From an uncultured delta proteobacterium (lineage in GTDB: Bacteria; Desulfobacterota; Desulfobacteria; Desulfobacterales; Desulfosalsimonadaceae), in contig CAWGYD010000001.1 in assembly GCA_963826785.1 (NCBI GenBank), positions 480,001-544,000 on the forward strand: a DNA stretch of 64,000 nt, in the 5' to 3' direction. The notes under the pieces are model-generated. The model worked only from the letters and a program-made list of their open reading frames with translations. It did not search any database and was not told where the DNA came from. A program made the translations under genes and the position numbers. Positions 2,236 to 56,900 of the stretch are shown piece by piece. Each line of letters starts with the position of its first letter. Position 1 is the first letter of the stretch.

Positions 2236-2580
2236 CATTGCGATCAGATGCATTCCGGTTCGGCAAGCCGCTACACCCCCCTTTGTCCCCCCTCCAGGGG
2301 GGAATTAAGAGATAACAAAGAGTTGTGAATCACGATCCGTCATTCCGGCAGTCCTTAAGCCGGAATCCAGGAAAACGAAATGCTCAACTACCCGACGGAG
2401 AGGGCTCATAGGGGGACGCTGCGCGTGATTTTGCGCGTATGCCCTGGGGGGAATCAAGGGGTGTGCATTGCGATCAGATGCATTCCGGTTCGGCAAGCCG
2501 CTACACCCCCCTTTGTCCCCCCTCCAGGGGGGAATTAAAAGATGTGTCCCCCTCCAGGGGGGGAATTAAAGGAAGGTGTC
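2236..2580. repeat. 73-bp exact direct repeat (2236-2308 = 2466-2538) with family A palindromes and a family C hairpin between the copies
   Basis: CATTGCGATCAGATGCATTCCGGTTCGGCAAGCCGCTACACCCCCC...GGGGGGAATTAA occurs twice, 230 bp apart; family C hairpin at 2339-2370. Confidence 0.9.
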
Positions 2581-10724: not shown

Positions 10725-10797
10725 GTCATTGGGCAGTCTTCAAGCCGGAATCCAGTTTTTCCAATCGGTTCTGGACCCCGGCCTGCACCGGGGAGAC
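10725..10797. repeat. Degenerate family C (GTCATTCCGGC...GCCGGAATCCAG) hairpin pair
   Basis: GTCATTGGGCAGTCTTCAAGCCGGAATCCAG followed by inverted CTGGACCCCGGCCTGCACCGGGGAGAC. Confidence 0.65.
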
Positions 10798-41676: not shown

Positions 41677-44600
41677 ACCAGTCCACCTCCCCGGCCTTTT
41701 TCACGATGATCACCTCGTCACGCTGGGCCCCGGTGGGGCCGTAATAGTTGAACCCGTAGCTGAACTGCGCATATCCGCCGATCATCTGGGTGGGCTTGAT
41801 CATGATCCGGGTCACGCTGTTGTGGGTGCCGCCCCGCTGGCCGGAGCGCTTCGACCCCGGCGTGTTGATCAGCCGTTCCTGGGCGTGGTACATGAACGCT
41901 TTTCCCCTGGGGATGCGGTGGCTGACCACCGCCTTGGCCATGACCACGCCGTTGACGTTGAAGCATTCGATCCAGTCGTTGTCGGCCACATCGATGGCGG
42001 CGGCATCCTCGCTGTTGATCCAGACCGCCTCGCCCCCCCGGAACAGGGTCAGCATCAGGAGGGTATCCGAGTAGGTGGAGTGGATCGACCACTTGGAATG
42101 GGGGGTGAGGTAGTTTAAGACGATATATTTTCCGCTCTCCCGGATGCCGGCGGTGGACCCCATGGCCCGGGTGTCCAGCGGCGGCTTGTACACGGGCAGG
42201 CTTTCCCCGAAATCGACCATCCAGGGGTGGTCCTGGTAAAACTGGGCCCGGCCCGTCAGGGTGCGAAAAGGGAGTTTCTGCTCGATATTGATGACAAAAG
42301 GGGAATATCTCCGGTTTTCCGCCTCGATGCCGCTCCAGGTGGGGGAGGTGAGGATCGCGCGCGGCTGGGCGGTGATGTCGGAAAAGGTGATCCGGTCGCC
42401 TTGCCGCTCGGCGCTGAGATGGGAAAGGGACAGCCCGCTGGTCTTTTCCACGCCGTGCCACGATTTGACCGAGGTCTTCCCGTTGGTCTCCGGGGCCATG
42501 GCTAAAATCACCTGCGCCGCGGCCTTGCCGGTATCGAGCCGGGGCATGCCGAAGCTGACCCCCGGTGCGGTGACCGTGCCGAGTTCATCCTTCAATGCCG
42601 CGTATTCGTCATCGGCCTTCCAGGAAACCCCCTTGGCCCCCATCCCTTTTTCGGCGCAGAGCGGCCCTAAAGCCGTATACATGTTGTAGGTGTTGGGGTA
42701 GTCCCGGTTCACCACGGTGAGGTTGGGCATGGTTTTTCCGGGGACGGGATCGCACTCCCCCTTTTTCCAGTCCCGGATTTCGGGCTGGGCGATTTCGCCC
42801 GGGGTGTCATGGGAAAGCGGTGTGGCCACCAGGTCTTTTTCCACCCCCAGATGCCCGGGGGCCAGCCGGGAGAACTTTTCGGCCAGGGTCTTGAATTGGT
42901 CCCAGTTGGTTTTGGATTCCCATGGCGGGTCGATGGCCGGGTTGAAGGGGTGGATGAACGGGTGCAGGTCGGTGGTGCTCAGGTCGTGCATCTCGTACCA
43001 GGAGGCGGCCGGCAGGACCACGTCGGCATACAGGGCCGAGGTGGACATGCGGATTTCAGATGTCACCAGCAGATCGAGTTTTCCCTCCGGGGCGGTCTCC
43101 GGCCACTCGATCTCCTGGGTGCGGTGCGCGCTTTCTTCATTGTTCACCGCGTTTTCCACCCCCAGCAGGTGCTTTAAGAAATATTCGTGCCCCTTGCCGC
43201 TGGCGCCCAGGACGTTGGCCCGCCAGAAAAACATCACCCGGGGAAAATTCTCCGGGCTGTCCGGGGCCTCGGCGGCAAACCGTAAGCTGCCCGATTTAAG
43301 TTGCCGGGTCACCTGCTCAATGATGGCATCATCGGTTTTTGCGCCGTCTTTTTGGGCCTGGCGGCACAGATCGATGGGGTTGCAGTCAAACTGGGGAAAC
43401 GATGGGAGCCAGCCCAGGCGCGCTGCCACGGCATTGTAGTCGGCCGGGTGCCGGTACAGGGGTGCGCGGCGCGCAGGGGGGGAAAGGGTGGTGGCATCCA
43501 GCGGGTCGTAGCGCCACTGGCCGGTGGCGAAATAAAAAAAAGAGGTCCCGTTCTGCTGCCGGGCCGGACGAACCCAGTCCAGGCCGAAGGCAACCTGCAT
43601 CCAAGAGGCGATGGGCCGGATCTTTTCCTGCCCCACGTAATGGGCCCACCCGCCGCCGTTGACCCCCTGGCAGCCGCACAGGGTGGTCAGGTTCAGAATG
43701 GCCCGGTAGGTCATGTCGCTGTGAAACCAATGGTTGGTTCCCGCGCCAACGAAAATCATGGCCCGGCCCCGGGTTTTCTCGGCGGTTTGGGCAAACTCCC
43801 GGGCCACCCGGACCGCATCTTTCGCGGCAACCCCGGTGATGGACTCCTGCCAGGCCGGAGTATACGGCTTTTTATCCTCATACCCGGAAGGATAACCGTC
43901 AAGATCGGCATCATCAGGAAAGCCGGAGGCGCCCGCTTTTGGACGGATGCCCAGGTTGGCCGCCATCAGGTCAAATACCGTGGCCACCCGGATATCGCCC
44001 CGGTCGGTCCGGACGGTTTTCACCGGCACGCACCCGGTCTTTTCTTCGATGCCGGAAAGGGCGAACACGGGAAATTTCAGATGCACCCACCCGTCGTTTT
44101 CCTCGGCAAAACTCAACAACGGGTCGATTGGCACCCCTGTGTCCGGGTGTTCGAGTTTTAAATTCCAGCGCCCCTCTTCGTTCCACCGGAATCCGATGCT
44201 GCCGTTGGGGACCACCGGCGATGCGGTATTCGCATCGAATATCACGGTTTTCCATTCGGCATGGTTGTCTTTTCGTCCCAGGTCTGCGGCCCGAAGGAAC
44301 CGGCCGGCTGCGTCGCCGCCCGTTTCGGCCGACTCGATCTTCACCAGGAAGGGAAGGTCCGTGTAGGTCTTGGCATACGGATAAAAGTAGTCGGATTGCC
44401 GGTCGATGAAAAATTCCTTGAAGACCACATGGGTCATGGCCATGGCCAGGGCCCCGTCCGTGCCGGCCTTGGCCGGCAGCCAGGTGTCGGCAAATTTCAC
44501 GTATTCCGCATAATCCGGTGAGACGGCCGCCACCTTCGTCCCCCGGTACCGGGCCTCGGTGTAAAAATGGGCGTCGGGGGTCCGGGTCTGGGGAAGATTG

Positions 44601-45391
44601 GTTCCCCACACGATCATGTAGTCGGCCCCGAACCAGTCCGCGCTCTCGGGCACGTCGGTCTGGTCCCCCCAGATCTGGGGCGAGGCCGGCGGCAGGTCGG
44701 CATACCAGTCATAGAAGCTGAGCATGGCCCCGCCGATGAGCGACAGGAACCGGGCGCCCGAGGCGTAGCAGACCATGGACATGGCCGGTATGGGGGTAAA
44801 TCCGAAGATCCGGTCCGGCCCGTAGGTCTTGATGGTGTGGATCAGCGACGCGGCCACCAGGGTGGCGGCCTCATCCCAGGAAACCCTGACCAGTCCGCCC
44901 TTGCCTCGGGCCTTCTGGTACAGCCGGATATTTTCCCGGTCGGCGGCAATGTGCGCCCAGGCCTCCACCGGGTCCGGGTGCGCCGCCAGGGCGGTGCGCC
45001 ACAGATTCAGAAGCTCCGAACGGATGTAGGGGTACTTGATCCGCACCGGGCTGTAAACATACCAGGAAAACGTGGTTCCCCGGGGGCAGCCCCGGGGTTC
45101 GTGGTCGGGCAGGGCCGCGCCGCAGCCCGGATAATCGGTCGCCTGCAGCTCCCAGACGATCACCCCGTTCTTGACATGGACCTCCCAGGAGCACGAACCG
45201 GTGCAGTTCACCCCGTGGGTGGATCGGACCTTTTTATCGAACTGCCAGCGGCTGCGGTAAAACGATTCCCATTCCCGCTGATCACAGCGCACCTCGGCCA
45301 GGCCATCGGCCAGATTTTCTTTTCTGCACGCGCGGTCTTTTCCGCGGGGGCGCAGGAACCGTAGTCTCGAAAATAAAGGGGTTCGCCTCAT
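41666..45391 (-). CDS. narG: Respiratory nitrate reductase alpha subunit
   Basis: RSTHGVNCTGSC, PRGCPRG, SFYDWYADLPPASPQ, HYVGQEK and YGFNYYGP; GGAGG RBS before ATG 45391. Confidence 0.96.
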   Translation of the reverse strand: MRRTPLFSRLRFLRPRGKDRACRKENLADGLAEVRCDQREWESFYRSRWQFDKKVRSTHGVNCTGSCSWEVHVKNGVIVWELQATDYPGCGAALPDHEPRGCPRGTTFSWYVYSPVRIKYPYIRSELLNLWRTALAAHPDPVEAWAHIAADRENIRLYQKARGKGGLVRVSWDEAATLVAASLIHTIKTYGPDRIFGFTPIPAMSMVCYASGARFLSLIGGAMLSFYDWYADLPPASPQIWGDQTDVPESADWFGADYMIVWGTNLPQTRTPDAHFYTEARYRGTKVAAVSPDYAEYVKFADTWLPAKAGTDGALAMAMTHVVFKEFFIDRQSDYFYPYAKTYTDLPFLVKIESAETGGDAAGRFLRAADLGRKDNHAEWKTVIFDANTASPVVPNGSIGFRWNEEGRWNLKLEHPDTGVPIDPLLSFAEENDGWVHLKFPVFALSGIEEKTGCVPVKTVRTDRGDIRVATVFDLMAANLGIRPKAGASGFPDDADLDGYPSGYEDKKPYTPAWQESITGVAAKDAVRVAREFAQTAEKTRGRAMIFVGAGTNHWFHSDMTYRAILNLTTLCGCQGVNGGGWAHYVGQEKIRPIASWMQVAFGLDWVRPARQQNGTSFFYFATGQWRYDPLDATTLSPPARRAPLYRHPADYNAVAARLGWLPSFPQFDCNPIDLCRQAQKDGAKTDDAIIEQVTRQLKSGSLRFAAEAPDSPENFPRVMFFWRANVLGASGKGHEYFLKHLLGVENAVNNEESAHRTQEIEWPETAPEGKLDLLVTSEIRMSTSALYADVVLPAASWYEMHDLSTTDLHPFIHPFNPAIDPPWESKTNWDQFKTLAEKFSRLAPGHLGVEKDLVATPLSHDTPGEIAQPEIRDWKKGECDPVPGKTMPNLTVVNRDYPNTYNMYTALGPLCAEKGMGAKGVSWKADDEYAALKDELGTVTAPGVSFGMPRLDTGKAAAQVILAMAPETNGKTSVKSWHGVEKTSGLSLSHLSAERQGDRITFSDITAQPRAILTSPTWSGIEAENRRYSPFVINIEQKLPFRTLTGRAQFYQDHPWMVDFGESLPVYKPPLDTRAMGSTAGIRESGKYIVLNYLTPHSKWSIHSTYSDTLLMLTLFRGGEAVWINSEDAAAIDVADNDWIECFNVNGVVMAKAVVSHRIPRGKAFMYHAQERLINTPGSKRSGQRGGTHNSVTRIMIKPTQMIGGYAQFSYGFNYYGPTGAQRDEVIIVKKAGEVDWYED

Positions 45392-45436
45392 CCGGCCTCC
45401 GTGATGCGGTTTTTGATTGCGGCATTTTGATAACAA

Positions 45437-45502
45437 AGAATGCGGTTTGCAAAAAAAGTTGTCAAACCGGAGAGAAGAGGCGTAGTTTATTTGATCGGAT
45501 CA
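45437..45502 (-). promoter_or_regulatory. Possible nar promoter plus upstream palindrome
   Basis: TTGACA (45465-45460)-N17-CATTCT on the minus strand; TGATC-G-GATCA palindrome at 45492-45502. Confidence 0.4.
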
Positions 45503-45644
45503 TAAATATCTTGTTCCCGGTTGTCTTTGCGCGAAGAACTTTTTGAAAGTGGATAAAAAGAAGCAAAGCGAATCGACATCATAACCTTTTTTACTTCTGG
45601 CTCCTTTTTCGATCCGTGGGAATTGGAAACGCAGGGAAAACATC

Positions 45645-47000
45645 ATGAACCCATCAAACGAACAAACGGATGTGGTATTGGTTTACCCGTACTATTACAC
45701 GCATGCCCTCAAGGCCATGCTGTTTCATCCGCTGGGAATCGCCCAGTTGGCCGCGCTGCTGCGCGAAAGGGGCATTTCCACCCGGGTGGTCGACTGCACC
45801 TTTCTGGACAGGGATTCGGCGATCGCCTCAGTTGCGGCGGCCCGGCCGAAAATCGTGGGCATTTACATCATGCTGTCCATGTCGGCAAACGCCCTGGCGC
45901 TTGCGGCGGCCCTTCGAGACCGCCTTCCCGGAGCCGCAATCGTCTGCGGAGGACCGCTTCCCACTTTGCGCCCCGAAGTTTTTTCGCCGGTATTCGATAT
46001 GGTTTTCCGGGGGGAGGCGGCCCAATCGTTTCCGGATTTCTGCGCCGATTACCTGGCGGAAACGCAGCCGAATGCGGATTTCGCATCCGTTATTGACGAG
46101 CCGACCCGATATCCGGGAATCTATCGGCGGCAGCCCGGCGGCGGGATTGTTTCATCCCCATCCCGGCATTCCGATGAAGACCAGATCAATCTACTGCCGA
46201 AACCGGATCGCAGCGATTATCCCCATGCGGCTTACCAGCGCTTCTGGCGCGATGCGCAGGGATTTTCCCTTGCCGGCATCATGACCACTTACGGCTGCCC
46301 GTATCACTGCGATTTCTGTTCAAAACCGATTTACGGGAATATCCTGCGGCGGCGATCCATGGACCGCATTTTCGAAGAGATCGCCGACATCAAACAACGG
46401 GGATACGACGGACTGTGGATCGCCGATGACTGCTTCAGCATCGACCCGGGCCATGTCCGGGCTTTCTGCCGTCGGCTGATTTCGGAAAAACTCGACATGA
46501 AATGGTTCTGCCTGGCCCGGGTGGACGGCATCTCTTCGGCCGACATCGGCCTGTGGGAGGCGGCGGGCTGCAAAAAGGTGTTTTTCGGACTGGAATCCGG
46601 GGACAACCGGGTGCTTTCTCTGATGAACAAGAAGACCACCACCGAAATGGCGGAGCGCACGCTTGACCGGTTTGCCAAAAGCGGCATCGATACCGCCGGG
46701 TTCTTTATCGTGGGATACCCCGGCGAAACCCACGAGAGCATCGAGACCACCTTTACGTGGGCGCTTTCCCTCCCGCTGGATGAAATCTCTTTTTCCGTTC
46801 CGTACCCGCTTCCCGGCACGCCCCTCCATGACCGGGTCGTCCTTTCCGGAAACCAAGCCGACTGGAACTACGAAAACGAAAACAAGATGGTCTATGCCTC
46901 GGATTTCGATGAATCCTACCTGAAAGCCCGAATCGATTCGGCATATGCCGAATTTGCGGCCCGGCGCCAAAAGCGGCCGACTGCGGGAACCCGCCGATAA
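45645..47000 (+). CDS. B12-binding-domain radical SAM protein
   Basis: HPLGIAQLAA cobalamin-binding-type N-terminus; CPYHCDFC; FGLESG; PLPGT. Confidence 0.88.
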   Translation: MNPSNEQTDVVLVYPYYYTHALKAMLFHPLGIAQLAALLRERGISTRVVDCTFLDRDSAIASVAAARPKIVGIYIMLSMSANALALAAALRDRLPGAAIVCGGPLPTLRPEVFSPVFDMVFRGEAAQSFPDFCADYLAETQPNADFASVIDEPTRYPGIYRRQPGGGIVSSPSRHSDEDQINLLPKPDRSDYPHAAYQRFWRDAQGFSLAGIMTTYGCPYHCDFCSKPIYGNILRRRSMDRIFEEIADIKQRGYDGLWIADDCFSIDPGHVRAFCRRLISEKLDMKWFCLARVDGISSADIGLWEAAGCKKVFFGLESGDNRVLSLMNKKTTTEMAERTLDRFAKSGIDTAGFFIVGYPGETHESIETTFTWALSLPLDEISFSVPYPLPGTPLHDRVVLSGNQADWNYENENKMVYASDFDESYLKARIDSAYAEFAARRQKRPTAGTRR

Positions 47001-47800
47001 TGATCCACAGGCTCGGGTTGCCGGATGGATTGTACCTGGTTCATTCCGATCAGCCGGGAGAAGGCAAAACCCGGGGCATGGCCAAAGGGCCGCACCTGGG
47101 GTGTGGCCATACCCTGTTTGCCGGCGGATCATCGGGTTTCGGACTTCCGGTCTTAAAGACGCCGGGACGGACGGTCTTTTCGTCCCTGCACGCCATCTCC
47201 CGGCCGGCACCGGACTGCCTTGAAATCGTCTATGATGTAAACCGGATCGTTTCATGGCATTTCCTGGGCGTAAAAACCCCGTCGATTTTTTCCGAGGTTC
47301 TGGAGAAATTGACGGATGGGTACATGAAAGTCCCCGGATGCCAGCAGGGCCTGCTGATGATCCGCAACCGGCTGTTTCAGCTTTTTCGGATTAAAAGCCG
47401 CATGGCAAAAGACCGCAGCCGGGGCCTTTGTCGGGTGACCTGCCGGACTGAAACCGGGAAACTGGCGATCCGGGTGGACGGCAGGGACCTGGCGGGCACA
47501 GGAGAATTGATCCTGTTAAACGAGGCGGCGGGAAACGCCTTTACCCGGCTGCGGATCAACGGCCGGATCTATGACGATCATCAGATTCCCGCCTGGATTT
47601 CCTGCCCCCTGGCCGCCCGTTTTGAAAATCCGGATGCCGGCGTGGGCTTTGGGGTTGATTTTCCGGACAAGGAGCCGGGAAAATTCCGGTTGGATGCCGG
47701 CCGGGAAGTCGGCCGGGGGCTGAACTGGGCCGGATTTGCGCTGACCATGGGCCGGCGCGCCTTTGCCTACCAGGTCCATTTTGACACCGATCGATGCTGA
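47000..47800 (+). CDS. Hypothetical protein coupled to the radical SAM gene
   Basis: TAATG stop/start overlap; 266 aa; no recognised motif. Confidence 0.6.
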   Translation: MIHRLGLPDGLYLVHSDQPGEGKTRGMAKGPHLGCGHTLFAGGSSGFGLPVLKTPGRTVFSSLHAISRPAPDCLEIVYDVNRIVSWHFLGVKTPSIFSEVLEKLTDGYMKVPGCQQGLLMIRNRLFQLFRIKSRMAKDRSRGLCRVTCRTETGKLAIRVDGRDLAGTGELILLNEAAGNAFTRLRINGRIYDDHQIPAWISCPLAARFENPDAGVGFGVDFPDKEPGKFRLDAGREVGRGLNWAGFALTMGRRAFAYQVHFDTDRC

Positions 47801-47861
47801 TGGATACGCAACGCATTGCCTCCCGACCCGGCCGCCCCGCCCGCCCCGCCTGCACCGTCCG

Positions 47862-48110
47862 CACCCCCTTTTTTTTTATTCCCCCTCGAGGGGACTCCCC
47901 ATTTTTCACTCCCCCTTCGAGGGGACTTCTCGATTTTTTATTACTCCCTCAAGGGAACCACCCCCTTTTCATTCCCCCCTCAAGGGAACCACCCCCTTTT
48001 CATTCCCCCCTCAAGGGAACCACCTCCTTTTCATTCCCACCTCGAGGGAGCCACCTCCTTTTTACTCTCTCCTCGAGGGGATCTCCCCCTTTTTATTCCC
48101 CCCTCGAGGG
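47862..48110. repeat. ~31-bp tandem array (about 8 units) of family A half-units
   Basis: Units such as CCACCCCCTTTTCATTCCCCCCTCAAGGGAA repeated contiguously; element resumes at 48584-48612 after the insertion. Confidence 0.88.
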
Positions 48111-48170
48111 CATAGGCGCTAACTTAATGACCGATGCAATATCTTCTAATTTGTCGTTCCTCTTAAGAGC

Positions 48171-48534
48171 GTCATTCCGGCAGTCTTTAAGCCGGAATCC
48201 AGGAAGACGAAATGAACAGGCAACCAGCGGTATACATTCTTGCAAATAAAAGAAACGGCACCCTTTATATCGGTGTGACCTCCGACCTCATCAAGCGAGT
48301 TTGGGAACATAGAAACAATTTCGTGGAAGGGTTCACCAAAAAGTATGGAGTCCATTTTTTGGTTTGGTATGAGCTTCATGGAAGTATGGAATCTGCTATC
48401 CAGCGAGAGAAACGATTGAAAGACTGGAAACGAAAGTGGAAAATGCATTTGATTGAGAGAACGAATCCCGATTGGGAGGATTTGTATCCCGCAATCATTT
48501 AGATGGATTCCGGCTAAAAGACTGCCGGAATGAC
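48171..48534. repeat. Inverted pair of family C REP-like hairpins bracketing the GIY-YIG gene
   Basis: GTCATTCCGGCAGTCTTTAAGCCGGAATCCA (48171-48201) and its reverse complement at 48504-48534 (30/31). Confidence 0.9.
48212..48502 (+). CDS. Small stand-alone GIY-YIG nuclease
   Basis: VYILANKRNGTLYIGVTSDLIKRVWEH, FTKKYGV, AIQREKRLKDWKRKWK and NPDWEDL. Confidence 0.92.
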   Translation: MNRQPAVYILANKRNGTLYIGVTSDLIKRVWEHRNNFVEGFTKKYGVHFLVWYELHGSMESAIQREKRLKDWKRKWKMHLIERTNPDWEDLYPAII

Positions 48535-48675
48535 ATAAAGGATGATTACGGGGGGGATACTATGCGTTAAGTCAGCGCTTATGCCCCTCGAGGGGGGGGC
48601 AGGGGGGGTGTTCGGACCGGCGAAAAAAACTTATTTTAAACCCTTGTCGAGTTGAGGCCCTTGAAAGGAGCGACC

Positions 48676-49825
48676 ATGCCGTTTGATTTCTTCCTGATGT
48701 TGAAGATGCTGTTCAAGTCCGTGGTCTCCTACCGGGCCACCGGTTTGAAATTTACCCCCCAGCGGATCGCCTTCACCCTCTTTTTCCCGGTGATGTTTTT
48801 GTTCCAGGAACTGATCACCTGGGCCTGTCTGCTGCTCGATGACCAGATCTACCCCGACTACCGGAAGGTCGAGGTGAACCGTCCCCTGTTCATCGTGGGA
48901 TTTCCCCGAAGCGGAACCACTTACCTGCACCGGCTCATCGACAGTGATCCGCAGTTCACCGCGTTGAAGATGTGGGAGTTGATGTTTGCTCCCTCGATTC
49001 TTCAGAAGAAGTTTTTTCTGGCCCTGGGCAGACTGGACCGCAGAATCGGACATCCCCTTTACCGGATGGTGTTGAAATTCGAAGACAAAGCGTTTGCCGG
49101 GTCCCGCAAGATGCACCGGATCAGCCATTTCGAGGCGGAAGAAGACGAACTTATCCTGCTTCACATCTTTTCTTCGGCATTTCTGTTTTTCATGTTTCCT
49201 TTTGACGAGATGAAGCGGTTCACGCATTTCGACACGGATGTGCCCGCCCGCCGGCGCCGGGCGATTATGCGCTTTCTATAAAAAATGCGTACAGCGGCAT
49301 TTGTTCATGTTCGGCCCGGAAAAGATCTTTTTATCCAAGAACCCGGCTGGCAGCGGTAAAATCGAATCCCTCTATGAGACGTTTCCCGATGCGAAAATCG
49401 TGTGCATGGTGCGAAACCCGCTGGATGCCGTGCCCTCTGCCATCAGCTGGATGTCCTACGGGTTCAATACGTTCAATACCGATGAAAAACCCTACCAGAC
49501 AAAGCGGATCATGTCCGCCATTTCCCACTGGTACGCCTATCCCCTCATGCGGCTGGATTTAAGGGATGCGCATCAGCAGGCGATAAAAATCTACGATGCG
49601 CTGGTTTCCGATCCCGCCCCCTTTGTCAGAGGTCTCTATGAGCGGTTCGGGTATACTCTCTCCGGTGATTTTGAGGTGTTTTTAGCCAAAGAATCGGAAA
49701 AAGCGAAAAGTTATAAAAGCGGCCACGACTATTCCCTTGATCAGTTCGGCCTGACCCGTGAGCAGGTCGTGTCTGATTTTGCGCCGGTTTTTGAGCGGTT
49801 TGGTTTTCCGGAAAGGCAGGTTTAG
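48676..49825 (+). CDS. PAPS-dependent sulfotransferase (+1 frameshift at TTT 49273-49275)
   Basis: FIVGFPRSGTT in the first frame; LSKNP and VRNPLDAVPS in the second; removing one T gives MRFYKKCVQRH. Confidence 0.8.
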
Positions 49826-49985
49826 ACGCCTGTAATCCCTATCATCGGCAAATATATCCGAATTCATGATGAATTTGCGCTTGATAAACAAGCCTTTTGT
49901 TTTATTATTTCCAAGTTCCCCCGTTGTTTACCCGCAACCGATTCAATAACTTATATTTCATACCGCAGCTGGTCTGGACAGCGGA

Positions 49986-50228
49986 CCCGATGTGGTGGTG
50001 ATGGATGTCTCCATACCGAAGATGGACGGCGCAGAGTCCACCCGCCGGATCAAGGCCGAATTGCCCCAGGTGCGGGGAATTGCTTTATCCATGTTTGATG
50101 GTCAATATGTGCATAAAAGAATGGCTTTTGCAGGAGCGGAGACATTTGTCAGTAAAAATTCATCTTCGGATGACTTGCTCAAGGCGATTTTTGGCGAATC
50201 CAGCCCGAACCCAAAGGGAAATTCTTGA
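49986..50228 (+). pseudogene. Truncated receiver-domain remnant paralogous to the C-terminus of the downstream kinase
   Basis: 49986-50189 aligns without gaps to 52176-52379 (PDVVVMD.S.PKMDGA...SKNSSS.DLLK); N-terminal part of the domain is missing. Confidence 0.7.
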
Positions 50229-50258
50229 GAATTCTGAATCTGGAAAATTTTAGATAAA

Positions 50259-52427
50259 ATGAATCCCAGCAAATTAAGCGATCCTGATTTTAAAGTCCTG
50301 TTCGAGTCGGTACCCGGCCTTTATCTGGTGCTTGACCCGGATTTGAACATTGCCGCCGCAAGCAATGCCTATCTGGAGGCAACCCGTACACGCCGCGCCG
50401 ACATCCTTGGCCGGCACTTGTTCGACGTTTTTCCGGACAACCCCGACGATCCCTCGGCCGATGCCATCCGCAACACCCGCGCCTCGCTGAACCGCGTGCT
50501 GCAAACGCACCAGCCGGATGCCATGGTGGTGCAGCGCCATGACATCCGAAAACCGGAAGCAGAGGGCGGCGGGTTCGAGGTGCGCTACTGGAGTCCGGTC
50601 AATTCGCCTGTTTTAAATCCTGACGGTTCCCTTGCCTACATCATTCACCGGGTTGAAAATGTCACCGATTTTGTGTTTCTGAAGCAGGAGGGCGTTGAGA
50701 AATCCAGGTTGACGGATGAACTGCGGGAGCGGGCCGTCCAAATGGAGGCGGATCTGTATACCCGGTCCCGGGAGGTGGCGGACATCAGCCTGGAGCTTAA
50801 GCAGGCAAACCAGGAACTGATCCGGCTAAACGAAAAGGATGAACGCCGGCGCGCCAGCCGGATTCTGCAGCGGAGCGAGGAGCGATACCGCACCCTTTTC
50901 GAATCGATGGATGAGGGTTTCTGCATCATCGAAGTCTTGTTTGATGCAAGCGATAAACCCGTTGATTACCGCTTTTTGGAAATGAACCCCGCTTTCGAGA
51001 AACACACCGGACTGCACAACGCGGCAGGGAAGCGCATGCGGGAACTGGAGCCCCACCAGGAGGAGCACTGGTTTAAGACCTACGGCCGAATCGCCATGAC
51101 CGGCGAGCCGGAAAGATTCATCAACCATGCCGAGCACCTTGAAAACCGCTGGTTCGAAGTTTATGCATTCCGGATCGGTCAACCCCGGGAACGGAAAGTG
51201 GCCGTTCTTTTCAGTGACATCACGGATCGCCGAGAGGCGGAAGAATCCCTTCGGCAGTTGAACGCGACGTTGGAGCAGCGGGTATCGGAACGCACCGAAC
51301 TGGCCGAGGCCCGGGCCAGGCAGCTTCAGGCGCTGGCAGTTGAGCTGATCGAAGCCGAGGAAAAGGAACGCCGGCGGATCGCCGAGCTTCTGCACGAGGA
51401 CCTGCAGCAGCTCCTGGCCGGCGCACGGATGCAGGTGCAGGCGGCCGCCAACCGGCAGTCGGACAGGCCCATCCTGGACAATGTGGACCGTATCCTCGAA
51501 GAATCCATTGAAAAGTCGAGACAGTTGTCGCACGAACTCGACCCCCCGGTGCTGCGCCATTCCGGTTTAATCGATTCACTGGAGTGGCTGGTCCGGCAGA
51601 TGGAGAAGCAGTTCGGCCTGACAGTAGCGCTCGAGGTGGAAGGGGCGCGCCGGTTTGAGCGATTCCACATGAAAACCTTCATTTTCAGGGCCGTGCAGGA
51701 GCTCCTGCTCAATATCGCCAGGCACTCCGGGGCCAGGAGCGCCCGGGTGGTCCTGTCGGATTCAGAGGAAGCACTGGTCGTCATGATCAGTGACCCGGGC
51801 CGGGGGTTCATTCCCGGCAATCTGGCGGCCAACGGAAAATCCGGACTGGGCCTGGCGAGTTTGAGCGAGCGATCCCAGTATATCGGCGGCGGCCTGAAGA
51901 TCGAAAGCGCACCGGGTAAAGGCAGCCGCATCACCCTGACCATTCCAAAGGCCCTGCCCGAAGCGGGCACACTGGTTCCAGCGGCCGGGTGGCAAAGGCG
52001 CACGCAAAAGAAAGAAGCGGAAGATGGCAATACAGCGCTCCGGGTGCTGTTTGCCGATGATCACAAGGTGATGCGCCAGGGATTGATCAATCTCATCGAG
52101 GGCCAGCCGGATATCCTGGTGGTGGGCGAGGCTTCCAATGGTGAAGAAGCGCTTGAACTGACCCGGAAGCTAACCCCCGATGTGGTGGTGATGGATTTCT
52201 CCATGCCAAAGATGGACGGTGCGCAGGCCACCCGCCTGATCAAGGCCGAAATGCCCCGGGTGCGGGTGATCGGCCTGTCCATGTTCATGGATAATAAAAT
52301 CATCCGGAAAATGAGCATGGCCGGGGCGGATGCGTTCGTCAGCAAAAATTCCTCTTCCGCTGATTTGCTGAAGGAGATCTATGAAATTGGCAGGCGAAAA
52401 GGGGATGGCGGCACTGCCGATGCATAA
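50259..52427 (+). CDS. PAS-PAS hybrid sensor histidine kinase (HisKA_3 type) with C-terminal receiver
   Basis: Two PAS domains, ERRRIAELLHEDLQQ H-box, QELLLNIARHS, GLGL and ADDH...MD..MPKMDG. Confidence 0.9.
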   Translation: MNPSKLSDPDFKVLFESVPGLYLVLDPDLNIAAASNAYLEATRTRRADILGRHLFDVFPDNPDDPSADAIRNTRASLNRVLQTHQPDAMVVQRHDIRKPEAEGGGFEVRYWSPVNSPVLNPDGSLAYIIHRVENVTDFVFLKQEGVEKSRLTDELRERAVQMEADLYTRSREVADISLELKQANQELIRLNEKDERRRASRILQRSEERYRTLFESMDEGFCIIEVLFDASDKPVDYRFLEMNPAFEKHTGLHNAAGKRMRELEPHQEEHWFKTYGRIAMTGEPERFINHAEHLENRWFEVYAFRIGQPRERKVAVLFSDITDRREAEESLRQLNATLEQRVSERTELAEARARQLQALAVELIEAEEKERRRIAELLHEDLQQLLAGARMQVQAAANRQSDRPILDNVDRILEESIEKSRQLSHELDPPVLRHSGLIDSLEWLVRQMEKQFGLTVALEVEGARRFERFHMKTFIFRAVQELLLNIARHSGARSARVVLSDSEEALVVMISDPGRGFIPGNLAANGKSGLGLASLSERSQYIGGGLKIESAPGKGSRITLTIPKALPEAGTLVPAAGWQRRTQKKEAEDGNTALRVLFADDHKVMRQGLINLIEGQPDILVVGEASNGEEALELTRKLTPDVVVMDFSMPKMDGAQATRLIKAEMPRVRVIGLSMFMDNKIIRKMSMAGADAFVSKNSSSADLLKEIYEIGRRKGDGGTADA

Positions 52428-52609
52428 GGCTATGGAATATCACCTCACCAAAAAGCCCATCCTTCAATTCAGGATATATAAGATTGCGGCTTACGCCCGG
52501 CATCACCGCGAAAAAGCCGTCGCGGTTTCCAGGGAAGTAATTTTTACAAATGCTATAAATAATGGGTTCTGTTGGTAATTGCTATTGTTTAGCCCCGCCG
52601 GTTGTCCGT

Positions 52610-52761
52610 ACACCCCCCTTGGTCCCCCCTCGCAGGGGGGAATAAAAGAAAAGCCCCCCTCGCAAGGGGGATTTAAAAAAGGAGTCCCCCCTCGATGGGG
52701 GAAATAAGATCGTAATTTCAAGGCCTAATCCCCCCTTGAGGGGGGAATTAAAGGGGGGTGT
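52610..52761. repeat. Family A element with tandem units
   Basis: ACACCCCCCTTGGTCCCCCCTCGCAGGGGGGAAT... ending CCCCCCTTGAGGGGGGAATTAAAGGGGGGTGT. Confidence 0.85.
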
Positions 52762-52994
52762 GCGGGCGGCGGCCGTTACGATTCGAAAGTTCCTTTCTGT
52801 AAAAACTCCGCGCAACGGAATCGGAAGCTTTTTACGATGAGAAAGCCCGGTGCGCCTGAACATTTTAAAGCATGCGCTTTTCCGGGTCGGCGCGGCTGCC
52901 GTTGTTGGGCATATTTCAATATAATCAATGATATTTTCTGCACGCATCACAACAGTGAATTGCAATCAGGAGACTCCTGATTTAGAGCCGTCCC

Positions 52995-53555
52995 TCAGCC
53001 CTTGAGGGTGCAGGCATCCTTCAGATTCTCCACATTATCTCCGAAGGGTTTCGACATGATTTCATTCTTGTCGCCATAAATGAGAGTTGCCGCAAATTCT
53101 GCAATGTCAGTAATGATTTCCCGGCAGTGAAGCGCATGCTCCCGGCAGAGCCAGCTGTCTTTCCACTGCTTGCAGATTTCCCGGCACAATGTGTGGCCGT
53201 ATTTAGCCTTGATCAAATTGGGCAGCTGGTTGAACATTCGATAAAGCCCGGGATTTCCGTACAGCTGTTCGGCAGCGGCCCTGGCTGCGGCTTTTCTGTC
53301 CTCCCCTTCGGGGAGGCTGCTTCGGCCATGTACCGCACCGACAGCCAGTACCGCACCCACGATTGCACCGCAGGTGTCCCCGTAAAGTCCGACACCGCCT
53401 CCCAATCCCGTAGCCAATCTGAGGGTTTCTCTGGGAAGGCCTGTATCCACATGCTCCAGCACTGCTTCCAGGACACATTCCGCACAATTGAATCCCTTTG
53501 AAAAATTTTTCCTTGCCCGTTCTTTTACCAGCGTAATTTTTTCTTCAGTTTCCAT
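52995..53555 (-). CDS. C_GCAxxG_C_C-family putative redox protein
   Basis: NCAECV, TCGAIVG, LCREI and HCREI; GAGGA RBS before ATG 53555. Confidence 0.85.
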   Translation of the reverse strand: METEEKITLVKERARKNFSKGFNCAECVLEAVLEHVDTGLPRETLRLATGLGGGVGLYGDTCGAIVGAVLAVGAVHGRSSLPEGEDRKAAARAAAEQLYGNPGLYRMFNQLPNLIKAKYGHTLCREICKQWKDSWLCREHALHCREIITDIAEFAATLIYGDKNEIMSKPFGDNVENLKDACTLKG

Positions 53556-53800
53556 ATTATCCTCTAAGATCCGTTTTGATGAAGTCATAAAAGTCTGAAA
53601 AGCATGGTCGTCGTCATTTCAGCGAAGTTAGAACCCGTCATGACGAGAATTTGATCGATGCATGCCAAGGGGACTTATGTTGAAAGGGTTCATGAAAAAG
53701 CATTCATTGAAATGAACAGGGTTTTCCGGAAATCCCAATATACGCTCAAATGATTTTTCCGTCTACCAAAACTGCAGGAAAAATAACGGCCGCCGCCGGG

Positions 53801-53882
53801 ACACCCCCCTGCCCCCCTCGAGGGGGGATTAGGACTTGAAATTACGACCAAATTCCCCCCTTGAGGGGGGGCAGGGGGGTGT
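53801..53882. repeat. Compact ~82-bp family A element (two inverted palindromic arms plus spacer)
   Basis: ACACCCCCCTGCCCCCCTCGAGGGGGGATTAGGACTTGAAATTACGACCAAATTCCCCCCTTGAGGGGGGGCAGGGGGGTGT. Confidence 0.9.
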
Positions 53883-53916
53883 TCGGACCTGCAGAAGCCA
53901 AAAATCTGAATCAATA

Positions 53917-56900
53917 TCATCCCGCGTATTCCGCCCGTTCGATGAGCTCCATCTGGATGTCTTTGTTGAGCTGCGTGAAGTAGGCGTTGTAGCCGGAGAT
54001 CCGAACCATGAGGTGGCGGTAGTTTTCCGGGTGGGCCATGGCGTCTTTCAAGGTTTCCGAATTGACCACGTTGAACTGCAGCTGCATCCCGCCCATGCCG
54101 AAATAGGTTTTTACGTAGGCGCACAGGGTCTCCACGCTCTTTTCCCGGGTGTCGTTCGGATCCAGGTTGAACTTGACGTTAAAGGCGATGTTGTTGTCCA
54201 TGGTGTCTGGGTCCAGGGCGGCCACATCCCTTAAGTTGTCCAGGAAGGTTTTGGAGGCCAGGGGATGCGGGGTGAGGCCGGGGGTGAAGGCTTTGCCGAA
54301 GACCCGGCCCGAGGGGAGCGCCCCGGACAGCGATCCGTAGGCCACGTGCTGGGACATGGACCAGAATCCGGTGGTGTAGGGGCCGCCCCGGAAGTTTTTG
54401 TGTTCCCGGTGGATGTCGTGCACCAGGGCGGTCACCCGCCGGGCCATTTCAAGCGCCCCGGGATCTCCGGAGCCGAATTTCTTCACCCGGGTTGCCGCCT
54501 GGGCCTGCAGGGCGGGGTCGTTTTCGAAATTTTCGTCGATGGCTGCTTTCAGGCGGGAAAAGGGGACGCGCTTTTCATCATAGACCAGCTGTTTGATCAC
54601 CAGGAGGGAATCGATCACGTCGGACAGGCCGATGTTGGAGGTCCCCGATGAATTGTACACGGCGCCGCCCGCGGTGACATCGAGGCCCTTTTCGATGGTC
54701 CCCTGCATCAGGGCGCTCAAAAAAGGGGTGGGCCGCTTCTCGGAATGGACTTTGGCCAGCAGGTTGTTGAAATCCACGGCCTGGCCGATGAGAAATCTTA
54801 ATTGCTGTTCATAGGCGGCAAAGAAGGATTCAAAGTCGGGGAAAACGTCATCTTCGATGCTGCCGGTTTTCGGCCCCGGGGCCCAGCGCATCAGCGGATG
54901 GCAGCCGTCATGCAGGGCCATTTCCAGAGGCGCCACCAGGTTGAACAGGATGGCCCCGGTGTGTCCCATGTGCTTTCCGGAAATGGTGGGTTCCACGCAC
55001 CCGGTGGCCGACCAGTTCCGGATATCTTCTTCGGGATAGCCGTGCTGGGAAAGGGAGGCGAACACCGCCCTGTCGTTGTGCAGGGACGGGGTGCCGGCGG
55101 TGATGATGTTCACCTCGCACAGCCGCTTCAGATAGGTTTCGCTGTTGATCTCCGGGTGATGCCGGGCGTTTACGTTGACATCGCGCAGGGTCAGCATTTC
55201 CGCGGCTTTGAGCATGATGTAGGTCATGTCGTTCACCGCGTCCCTGCCGTCGGGCGTCACCCCGCCAATGGTGAGGGCCTGGGTGGAGGAGGCCCCCCCG
55301 AACAGGTAGTTGCCGATGTCCGGGGACAGGGGGAGATGGTCTGAAAAGCGCAGGAACAGGCAGCCGATCAGGTCGACGGCGTGTTTGATGCAGACCTTCT
55401 TTTCCGCATCGGTGGCGCATTTTTCCATGTCGGTTTCAAAATAAGGCTGGAGCCACTGGTCCAGCCGGCCGAACGACATGCCGGTGTTGGCGTTTTCCAT
55501 GTTGACGGCGATCCAGGTGAGGTTTAGCACATTGACCGCCTCGTCCAAGGTTAACGCGGGGTTTGCCGGCACGTTTTGAAGGATTTCGGCCAGGCGGAGA
55601 AGCTGCGCCCGCTGTTTCGGATCCTTTTCCGACCCGGCTTGCATTTCGGCCGCACCCCCAAGGCTTTTTGCATAGGCGTCCAACCCGTCCAGGGCAATCC
55701 GCATGGCCGAAAGCGTATTCTTTCCCTCGGCAGACAGGCCTGTATCGGCCAGGCGAGCCTCGATTTCTTTTCTTATCCCCGTGGTTCCCTTTTTCAGAAT
55801 GGTTGGAAAATCCGGTATGGTGTGGGATATTCCCACCGATTTCCAGACAAAGTAGGGGACCCATCGCTCCTCGATTTTCTGGCACAGGGGATAGCCGTTT
55901 TCCACGCGCACCCAGTTCCTGAAATTGCGCTCGGCCCAATAGGGAAAGATATCGAAGTGGAGTTTTTCCACCGTCTTTTCGGATATGGCATAGGGGTTTA
56001 AGATCCGGTGCGCGATGGAGCCGAGCTCCCCCCACAGCATGGTCCCCTGGGCCTCGGGATAGACCACCACCCCGATGGTGGGATTTGCGGTGGTGGTCCC
56101 GGCGATCAGGTCATTTTCCCGGATCAGCGGGGCCTTTTTCGCCATGATGTGCGCAAATACCCTGGCCTGCCGAAGGATCGGGTTCCAGGGGGCGCCGCCT
56201 ACGTCTGTTTCAAATCCGTTTTGCCGGCACCAGGCGGTAAGCAGTTCGGCGCGCTCGGGGCAGATCTCGGGCTTGATGCCAAAATAGGCGTCCCGGAAGG
56301 CCTTGAGCCGGGGAAAGTCATCCAGGCTGTATTCGGACAGGTAGGGATCGGGCAGATATTTGACCCCGGGATCAGTGCCCGGACATTTCATCCGGTATCG
56401 CCGCCGCTCCTTTAGAATGCCGGCCAGTCCGGCCGGGCACCCGGAATATGTCTTTTTACGCTCGGCCACATCCGTCCGGTGGCGTTTTTGAAGCATCTTC
56501 AAATGCTTGTTTCCCATGAGCAGGGAGACCAGAAAATTGAACAGCTGCAGGTAGGAGAGGTTGCCTTCCAGGATCATCCGGTTTTTCAGGATGAGGTTTA
56601 ACACCTCGTTGGGCGTGACCCGCAGCATTTCCAGAAGGGCCGCCTCGTCCTTGAACTTCAGCAGGGCATCGGCATCTTCCGGGATGGTTTTGCTCACCGA
56701 CATCTTTCCGTTTGAAAACACCGCGGCCAGGCGGACGCTGCGGGTCTCCGTGACAAAACCGATGGTAAAGTCAAGCGGCCCGTCCTTTACCGTCAGATAG
56801 CGGTTCAGGGCCGGGCGCTTGTTGAAAAGCAGGGCCATAAGTGACAGCAGCGCATGGGACATGCCGTTAAAGACCATTCCCTTGCTTTTTCGGGCAAACG

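Follow-up and report, generated by a model that had tools for sequence, protein, structure and literature searches.

A cassette of 473 bp with IS186-type ends and no transposase gene, which carries an Ssn-family nuclease gene between two inverted hairpins, has multiplied recently in this genome within a second repeat family (family A); an IS186-type DDE transposase acting in trans has probably moved it, with the SRM-ssn-SRM module as its passenger. The ends, the target duplication, the number of copies, the target and the family of the cargo can all be read directly from the assembly. The window, the whole stretch of 64,000 nt analysed here, corresponds to C1:480001-544000 (contig and positions) of a 4.43-Mb assembly of 11 contigs that is 87.8% complete, and the entire assembly was searched. 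The features of the insertion and of its model target are as follows.

47872..48110, + strand: tandem array of degenerate family A units with a period of 31 bp, its last unit occupied by the cassette
48100..48110, + strand: left 11-bp target duplication, CCCCTCGAGGG
48111-48583: whole cassette, 473 bp, no transposase, with 17-bp TIRs and an 11-bp target duplication
48111..48127, + strand: left TIR, CATAGGCGCTAACTTAA, 16/17 identical to the IS186 end
about 48170..48201, + strand: left CGTC-tagged SRM hairpin (family C), with an 8-bp stem (ATTCCGGC/GCCGGAAT) and a 9-nt loop
48212..48502, + strand: 96-aa single-domain GIY-YIG nuclease of the Ssn family, residues Y8, Y19, R29 and E66 present
48504..48534, - strand: right SRM hairpin, inverted relative to the left one
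48567..48583, - strand: right TIR, CATAAGCGCTGACTTAA (other strand), 16/17 identical to the IS186 end
48584..48594, + strand: right 11-bp target duplication, CCCCTCGAGGG
48595..48613, + strand: what is left of the split family A unit, namely its G run and the G-rich tail
53851..53882, + strand: intact BoxC/triplex-motif-like family A unit, taken as a model for the target before insertion

All the parts named in the initial annotation (a split family A palindrome, an 11-bp repeat, TIRs, hairpins, a 96-aa GIY-YIG ORF and no transposase) are present in the sequence. The left and right TIRs are alike at 15/17 positions, the two hairpins are 31-nt inverted copies with 97% complementarity and folding z values of -4.1 (left) and -3.9 (right) against 200 shuffles, and the ORF matched the Pfam GIY-YIG profile above its cut-off (E 7.8e-15). 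No gene other than this ORF was found inside the cassette, a transposase gene of its own being absent; a promoter and terminator scan gave chance level only, and no solved structure was matched by sequence. Deletion of 48111-48594 in silico yielded ATT-C6-TCGA-G8-CA-G7-TGT, a normal family A unit like that at 53851-53882, just as the annotation had claimed, and its placement of the element among the non-autonomous cassettes of the IS231 group (IS4 family) with an 11-bp duplication holds and can be refined to IS186/IS421-type ends. The duplications of 5, 7 or 9 bp that it had entertained are formally possible at the window site but are excluded by other loci: the copy at C5:294105 has a non-palindromic duplication (GGGGTCAGGGG), so the element end is CAT and the duplication length is 11, and CC rather than GG adjoins CAT in IS186A and in many outside elements. 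Just downstream of the insertion, at 48652-49825, a sulfotransferase gene lies in two overlapping frames (209 and 195 aa), reflecting a frameshift or a read error.

A search of the genome for the TIR and for an IS4 transposase with the same ends, both suggested by the initial annotation, returned 12 two-ended cassette loci (6 full and 6 internally deleted) and no such transposase in the 87.8%-complete assembly. Five of the full copies are 473 bp long with an intact gene and the sixth is 475 bp long with a frameshift; the six differ by 1-6 nt. Five of the shortened copies, 245-246 bp long, have one internal deletion junction in common, the sixth measures 333 bp and its right end is doubled, and five further loci are partial, older or degraded. 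The target duplication is an exact 11 bp at 7 of the 12 loci, where it represents five different sequences, 11 bp with one mismatch at 2, and 10-12 bp with 1-2 mismatches at 3. The five 245/246-bp derivatives, from which most of the gene is gone, occupy five different sites, each with its own duplication. In three very young full copies (C3:319655, C8:28207 and C5:314836) the upstream duplication has TCGA and the downstream one TTGA by family A polarity, a mismatch that may stem from recombination between copies or conversion of the loop.

The proposal that the cassette targets one repeat family was borne out, as family A is the site of all 12 loci; in 11 of them the insertion spans the hairpin loop, and the remaining one is in the G-rich tail. 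The genome has 357 family A cores against about 22 expected under a fifth-order Markov model, and family A holds 1670/10984 of the (CCC or GGG)-N5-(CCC or GGG) sites genome-wide and 1218/2206 of those outside long ORFs; the latter share, the stricter control though based on a crude mask, gives p about 8e-4 for 12/12. In outside flanks (134 distinct ones), G or C makes up 85-92% at positions -11 to -9 and -3 to -1 but 51-66% in between, with both polarities, CCC..GGG and GGG..CCC, represented.

Family A consists of three tracts laid out as in BoxC/TM, with a C run, a short loop, a G run, a spacer and a second G run. It resembles the BoxC/PIT/TM intrastrand-triplex repeats (PMC4666352) in this three-tract plan, in its intergenic place and in its hundreds of copies, and differs from them in having pure C6/G6 tracts instead of CCCTCNCCC, in flanking a DUF559 gene and in serving as an insertion target. 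The E. coli TM consensus CCCTCNCCC-N3-6-GGGNGAGGG-N3-GGGNGAGGG is not matched, and with its plain C6/G6 tracts the family is BoxC-like, not BoxC. In the available text of PMC4666352, no mobility route had been found for BoxC/TM repeats. The single DUF559 gene of the genome (C5:9468-9773) is bracketed by inverted family A units in a REPtron-like layout, and because of this bracketing the insertion in the window amounts to one nuclease-hairpin module dropped into the hairpin of another. REPs were already known as IS targets, and REP-targeting insertion sequences likewise enter extragenic palindromes (PMC1525189), the cassette differing from them as a non-autonomous element; REP dimers within other palindromes have been noted before as well (PMC3733652). 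At C9:12133-12537 we also observed two SRM hairpins around a cluster of BoxC-like hairpins with a gene-free interior.

The consensus TIR of the genome copies is identical to the 17 nt with which IS186A of E. coli K-12 begins (CATAAGCGCTAACTTAAGGGTTG at both ends), and the cassette ends fit the IS231-group signature CAT-------AA--TAA. The IS231 group of the IS4 family is described with these ends and with 10-12-bp direct repeats (PMC2266710), and IS421, which shares 99% identity with IS186, is listed among its members (PMC6352166). The cassette has in common with IS186/IS421 the first 17 nt of the ends, the 10-12-bp duplication and the G/C-rich targets, and it is unlike IS186 in being without a transposase, in its TIR of 17 nt (23 in IS186) and in carrying a passenger gene. 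Its target is CCCC-N4-GGG within a BoxC-like hairpin, as against GGGG-N6-CCCC for IS186A; the IS186 target consensus is GGGG(N6/N7)CCCC, with which the IS186 sites seen here agree. A MIC is defined by IS ends around a passenger gene with no transposase, and this is the structure of the cassette. IS231-ended cassettes with passenger genes are known and were shown to move in trans (PMC6199540), MIC231 of Bacillus cereus likewise combining IS231-group ends with a passenger gene and no transposase; the present cassette departs from that account in lying below the reported 0.7-3 kb, in its IS186-type ends, in its nuclease-hairpin cargo and in having another repeat family as its target.

Five queries of the 87.8%-complete assembly found no cognate IS186-type transposase or remnant of one. 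The PF01609 profile gave 4 matches, all with other ends or contexts, the IS186 protein and an alignment of transposases gave none, eight outside transposases used as queries reached a best E of 0.053, and the 3 matches to NF033592 were all below its cut-off. Multi-copy elements often fail to assemble. Outside this genome, a TIR scan of genome contigs returned at least 122 loci. Among the matches listed whose partner end lay within reach, at least eight are large elements with these ends, 1324-1475 bp long, with proteins of 361-447 aa (one pairing doubtful) and 10-11-bp duplications; five of their proteins together with that of IS186 have 29-60% identity to the first one aligned. These autonomous relatives contain the IS4 DDE motif Y-(2)-R-(3)-E-(6)-K (Y303, R306, E310 and K317), and NF033592 was matched by 6/6.

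Small elements with the same ends are numerous, with at least 41 distinct minis of 86-562 bp among the matches listed, and no transposase remnant was found in these 41 interiors. Duplications of 10-12 bp with at most 2 mismatches flank 28 of the 41, again among the matches listed, and most of these minis are without Ssn or SRM. Interiors folding at z < -2 make up 30/41 of the minis listed vs 2/24 windows of large elements (12-25 shuffles each). In this TIR-only sample the coding cargo of the listed minis includes at least 2 Ssn genes, from one genome, at least 2 DUF559 genes, also from one genome (Pfam on one), and at least 4 genes for an IVP four-helix protein (Pfam on two), and the bare hairpins in IS186-ended minis presumably belong to the repeat families to which our own motifs assign them. 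Some minis (L192, L213, L221, L226 and L229) are themselves inserted within SRM hairpins with 10-bp duplications, and locus L127, from a Klebsiella MAG, is a minimal element of 30 bp that is fully palindromic, its two TIRs overlapping at TTAA.

Among 251 genomes of the order, the exact TIR occurs in 14 and the transposase alignment was matched in 13, six of them IS186-type by score or ends; an IS186-type transposase is present in 3/14 genomes with the exact TIR vs 3/237 others (Fisher p 0.0025, kin not being independent). G013, a genome of the same family, has an IS186-type element split over two contig ends, and both it and G019 contain decayed relatives of the right arm of this cassette. Three genomes (G145, G230 and G234) have many IS186-type ends bordering ATTGATT heptamer arrays, and in G145, with 45 such ends, no transposase match was found. 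The 119 viral loci with the TIR are mostly IS186 itself, and none contains Ssn.

By its sequence, the GIY-YIG protein of the cassette is a member of the Ssn family with the catalytic residues kept. Over 93 aa it shares 63% identity with the product of a Neisseria gonorrhoeae gene that is unannotated and has NTS hairpins on its flanks; we infer this gene to be ssnA from the NTS flanks and the residue numbering, and the mutated SsnA residues Y6, Y17 and E64 align to its Y8, Y19 and E66. The Ssn nuclease-SRM hairpin system was published in 2025 (PMC11893778); SsnA (cd10448) cleaves ssDNA on the 5' side of its own hairpin at a distance of a few bases, reduces transforming-DNA integration, and in that account is shown to cut only, not to join DNA. 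The module in the cassette agrees with this system (Ssn with NTS/SRM, PMC11893778) in having a single-domain GIY-YIG protein of 94-96 aa, the catalytic residues and inverted CGTC hairpins on both sides; it differs in the GGC/GCC stem and 9-nt loop of its hairpin and in being enclosed by IS ends, a vehicle not described in the available text of that paper. REPtrons with a RAYT gene similarly bracket a gene with its own hairpins (PMC3733652), but the gene here is a nuclease rather than a HUH transposase. The HUH/Y1 transposase between REPs that would mark a REPtron is thus replaced by GIY-YIG, and the 5 Y1_Tnp matches of the genome lie elsewhere. Ssn homologues with at most 63% identity were found in 33 plasmid records (flanks checked for one).

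In the mechanism that we favour, an IS4-family transposase would read CATAAGCGCTAACTTAA at the ends and move the cassette by cut-and-paste, making an 11-bp staggered cut in (G/C)3-N5-(G/C)3 sites, for which family A would be the best source in this genome. The helper may since have been lost, or may lie in an unassembled part of the genome. Like SsnA, the nuclease would cut ssDNA immediately 5' of the SRM hairpin, and it would not catalyse the jump. It is probably not the engine, because nuclease-less derivatives have their own target duplications, though deleted copies could be acted on in trans by the nuclease of intact ones. Movement by a borrowed transposase is likely, and would explain the spread of nuclease-hairpin modules between bacteria. 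Several observations count against this reading: no IS186-type transposase was found in the genome (87.8% complete) although the copies look very young; within the order sample the transposase is present in only 3/14 exact-TIR genomes, and G145 has 45 ends and none; no other strain with an empty site was seen in the low-cover reads; the target polarity is CCCC..GGG here vs GGGG..CC in E. coli IS186; and purifying selection on the nuclease (dN/dS 0.13-0.26) is not explained by a pure passenger model alone.

This selection was examined with near-full-length distinct Ssn genes only. The matches listed contain at least 34 TIR-linked genes (4 from this genome, 26 metagenomic and 4 from three other genomes) and 26 that are not TIR-linked, the outside TIR-linked genes (at least 30) being 67-78% identical; the metagenome scan combined TIR and SRM (at least 122 loci), so SRM cargo was selected by design. 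In three outside lineages with common TIR-to-hairpin spacers, dN/dS was 0.13, 0.26 and 0.22, and their pooled variants comprise 98 synonymous vs 88 non-synonymous changes, with about 21% synonymous under neutrality (the counts being phylogenetically non-independent). Judged from these substitution patterns, the nuclease is under purifying selection within cassette lineages. Recent copies within this genome have two non-synonymous and zero synonymous changes, plus a frameshift and deletions, and copies would seem to decay inside a genome while intact genes may be favoured between genomes. A tree of 60 Ssn proteins (96 columns) needs 6-7 changes of the TIR label, and a single old capture has an AU p of 0.62; one capture and several are both compatible with this tree.

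Such a gene might be a working accessory of the cassette, selected for the sake of the element, if cutting ssDNA beside the hairpins aids the entry of the module, its change of vehicle or the persistence of the cassette, an explanation that we consider rather improbable. It would accommodate the dN/dS values and the excess of synonymous variants just given, the presence of stops in only 2/34 TIR-linked full-length genes among the matches listed, the variation of the spacers by lineage, and the cutting by SsnA in the variable flank 5' of the hairpin, which is the spacer here; neutral decay in one genome with selection between genomes is also the pattern of a selfish-element gene. However, minis that have these ends but neither nuclease nor SRM jump with the same duplication, equal dN/dS would result if the host profited (by restriction of incoming ssDNA), the tree is compatible with a single old capture, and for no given lineage did we see an empty precursor of the form TIR-spacer-TIR. 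The continued selection of the gene fits a benefit to the host as well as one to the element.

The initial annotation had further suggested that the delivered nuclease propagates family C, with copies at 2339 and 10725 of the window, of which the former is real and the latter is degenerate.

2339..2382, + strand: solo family C hairpin followed by the upstream sequence of the nuclease and its ATG, no TIR
10725..10755, + strand: family C hairpin, degenerate and non-folding (z 0.13), no TIR

That the nuclease itself makes new family C hairpins genome-wide, as RAYT does for REPINs, is unlikely, still more so than the accessory role. The SRM-ssn-SRM arrangement resembles a REPtron, and the idea was raised by the Ssn authors (PMC11893778), for whose SsnA only cutting of DNA was shown, and no joining. 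The genome contains 105 SRM-like regex matches; 23 of these, some of them chance matches or missed MITE copies, lie outside TIR-bounded elements, but 82 lie inside two kinds of such element, 26 in IS186-type cassettes and 56 in an unrelated 132-bp MITE, so SRM copy number is explained by hitch-hiking and the proposed propagation in this genome is not upheld. The solo hairpin at 2339 is followed by the 14 nt found upstream of the start codon of the nuclease, with cassette sequence up to the ATG, and because of this leader it is probably a relic of a cassette arm. At 2236-2543, this hairpin is bracketed by a direct repeat of 78 nt that includes family A.

The second MITE (for example at C1:550823, just past the window, and on C5, C8 and C10) has a head-to-head SRM pair and ends, GATGAA..CGTAAAAAGTC, that are unrelated to those of the cassette; 23 copies have the length of 132 bp, and 18 paired cases have a 6-bp AT-rich duplication. 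Three of its copies (C5:304620, C5:280852 and C10:16661) are split by a 1.85-kb element that starts GTGCG and encodes an RT-like protein with YADD, resembling a group II intron, and two of the three insertions sit at the second hairpin of the MITE.

Reads from three runs (shares 0.07-0.08) gave scattered pieces with low cover over 44000-54500 and no contig spanning the insertion site, and one read joint at 48585, which may be chimeric, places the right end beside another family A flank only. It is most improbable that the copies arose as an artefact in assembling this repeat-rich metagenome-assembled genome. Although the copy at C6:201835 is full of indels resembling read error and paired duplications differ by one base in three full copies, the exact 11-bp duplications at seven loci, which are site-specific and represent five different sequences, a single junction common to the deletion derivatives, and related cassettes in independent genomes and metagenomes all speak against it.

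Each part of the cassette is of a known kind. Our search of the openly searchable literature, with ISfinder and subscription papers outside its scope, found no published account of Ssn or other REP modules inside IS186-type ends. CGTC-type REPs have been reported without a dedicated transposase, their mobilisation by other transposases being an open guess in that source (PMC3733652). We tentatively suggest that IS186-type ends may act as a cross-phylum shuttle for transposase-less repeat-gene modules (Ssn/SRM, DUF559/BoxC-like, IVP four-helix/heptamer arrays and bare REP pairs) that are picked up and dropped into other REPs; the shuttle could possibly be a main engine spreading non-RAYT REP families and nucleases within and between genomes, the nuclease being kept intact as it serves the travelling unit. 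The 17-nt end motif can be used to mine many Ssn-hairpin pairs, and the copy number of SRM and its linkage to ssn should be read with caution, as neither necessarily implies that the repeats are made by the nuclease. CGTC-type and BoxC-like repeats both ride in ordinary DDE-ended minis, one kind being the landing site of the other, which provides a route, open to testing, by which the Ssn system could spread.
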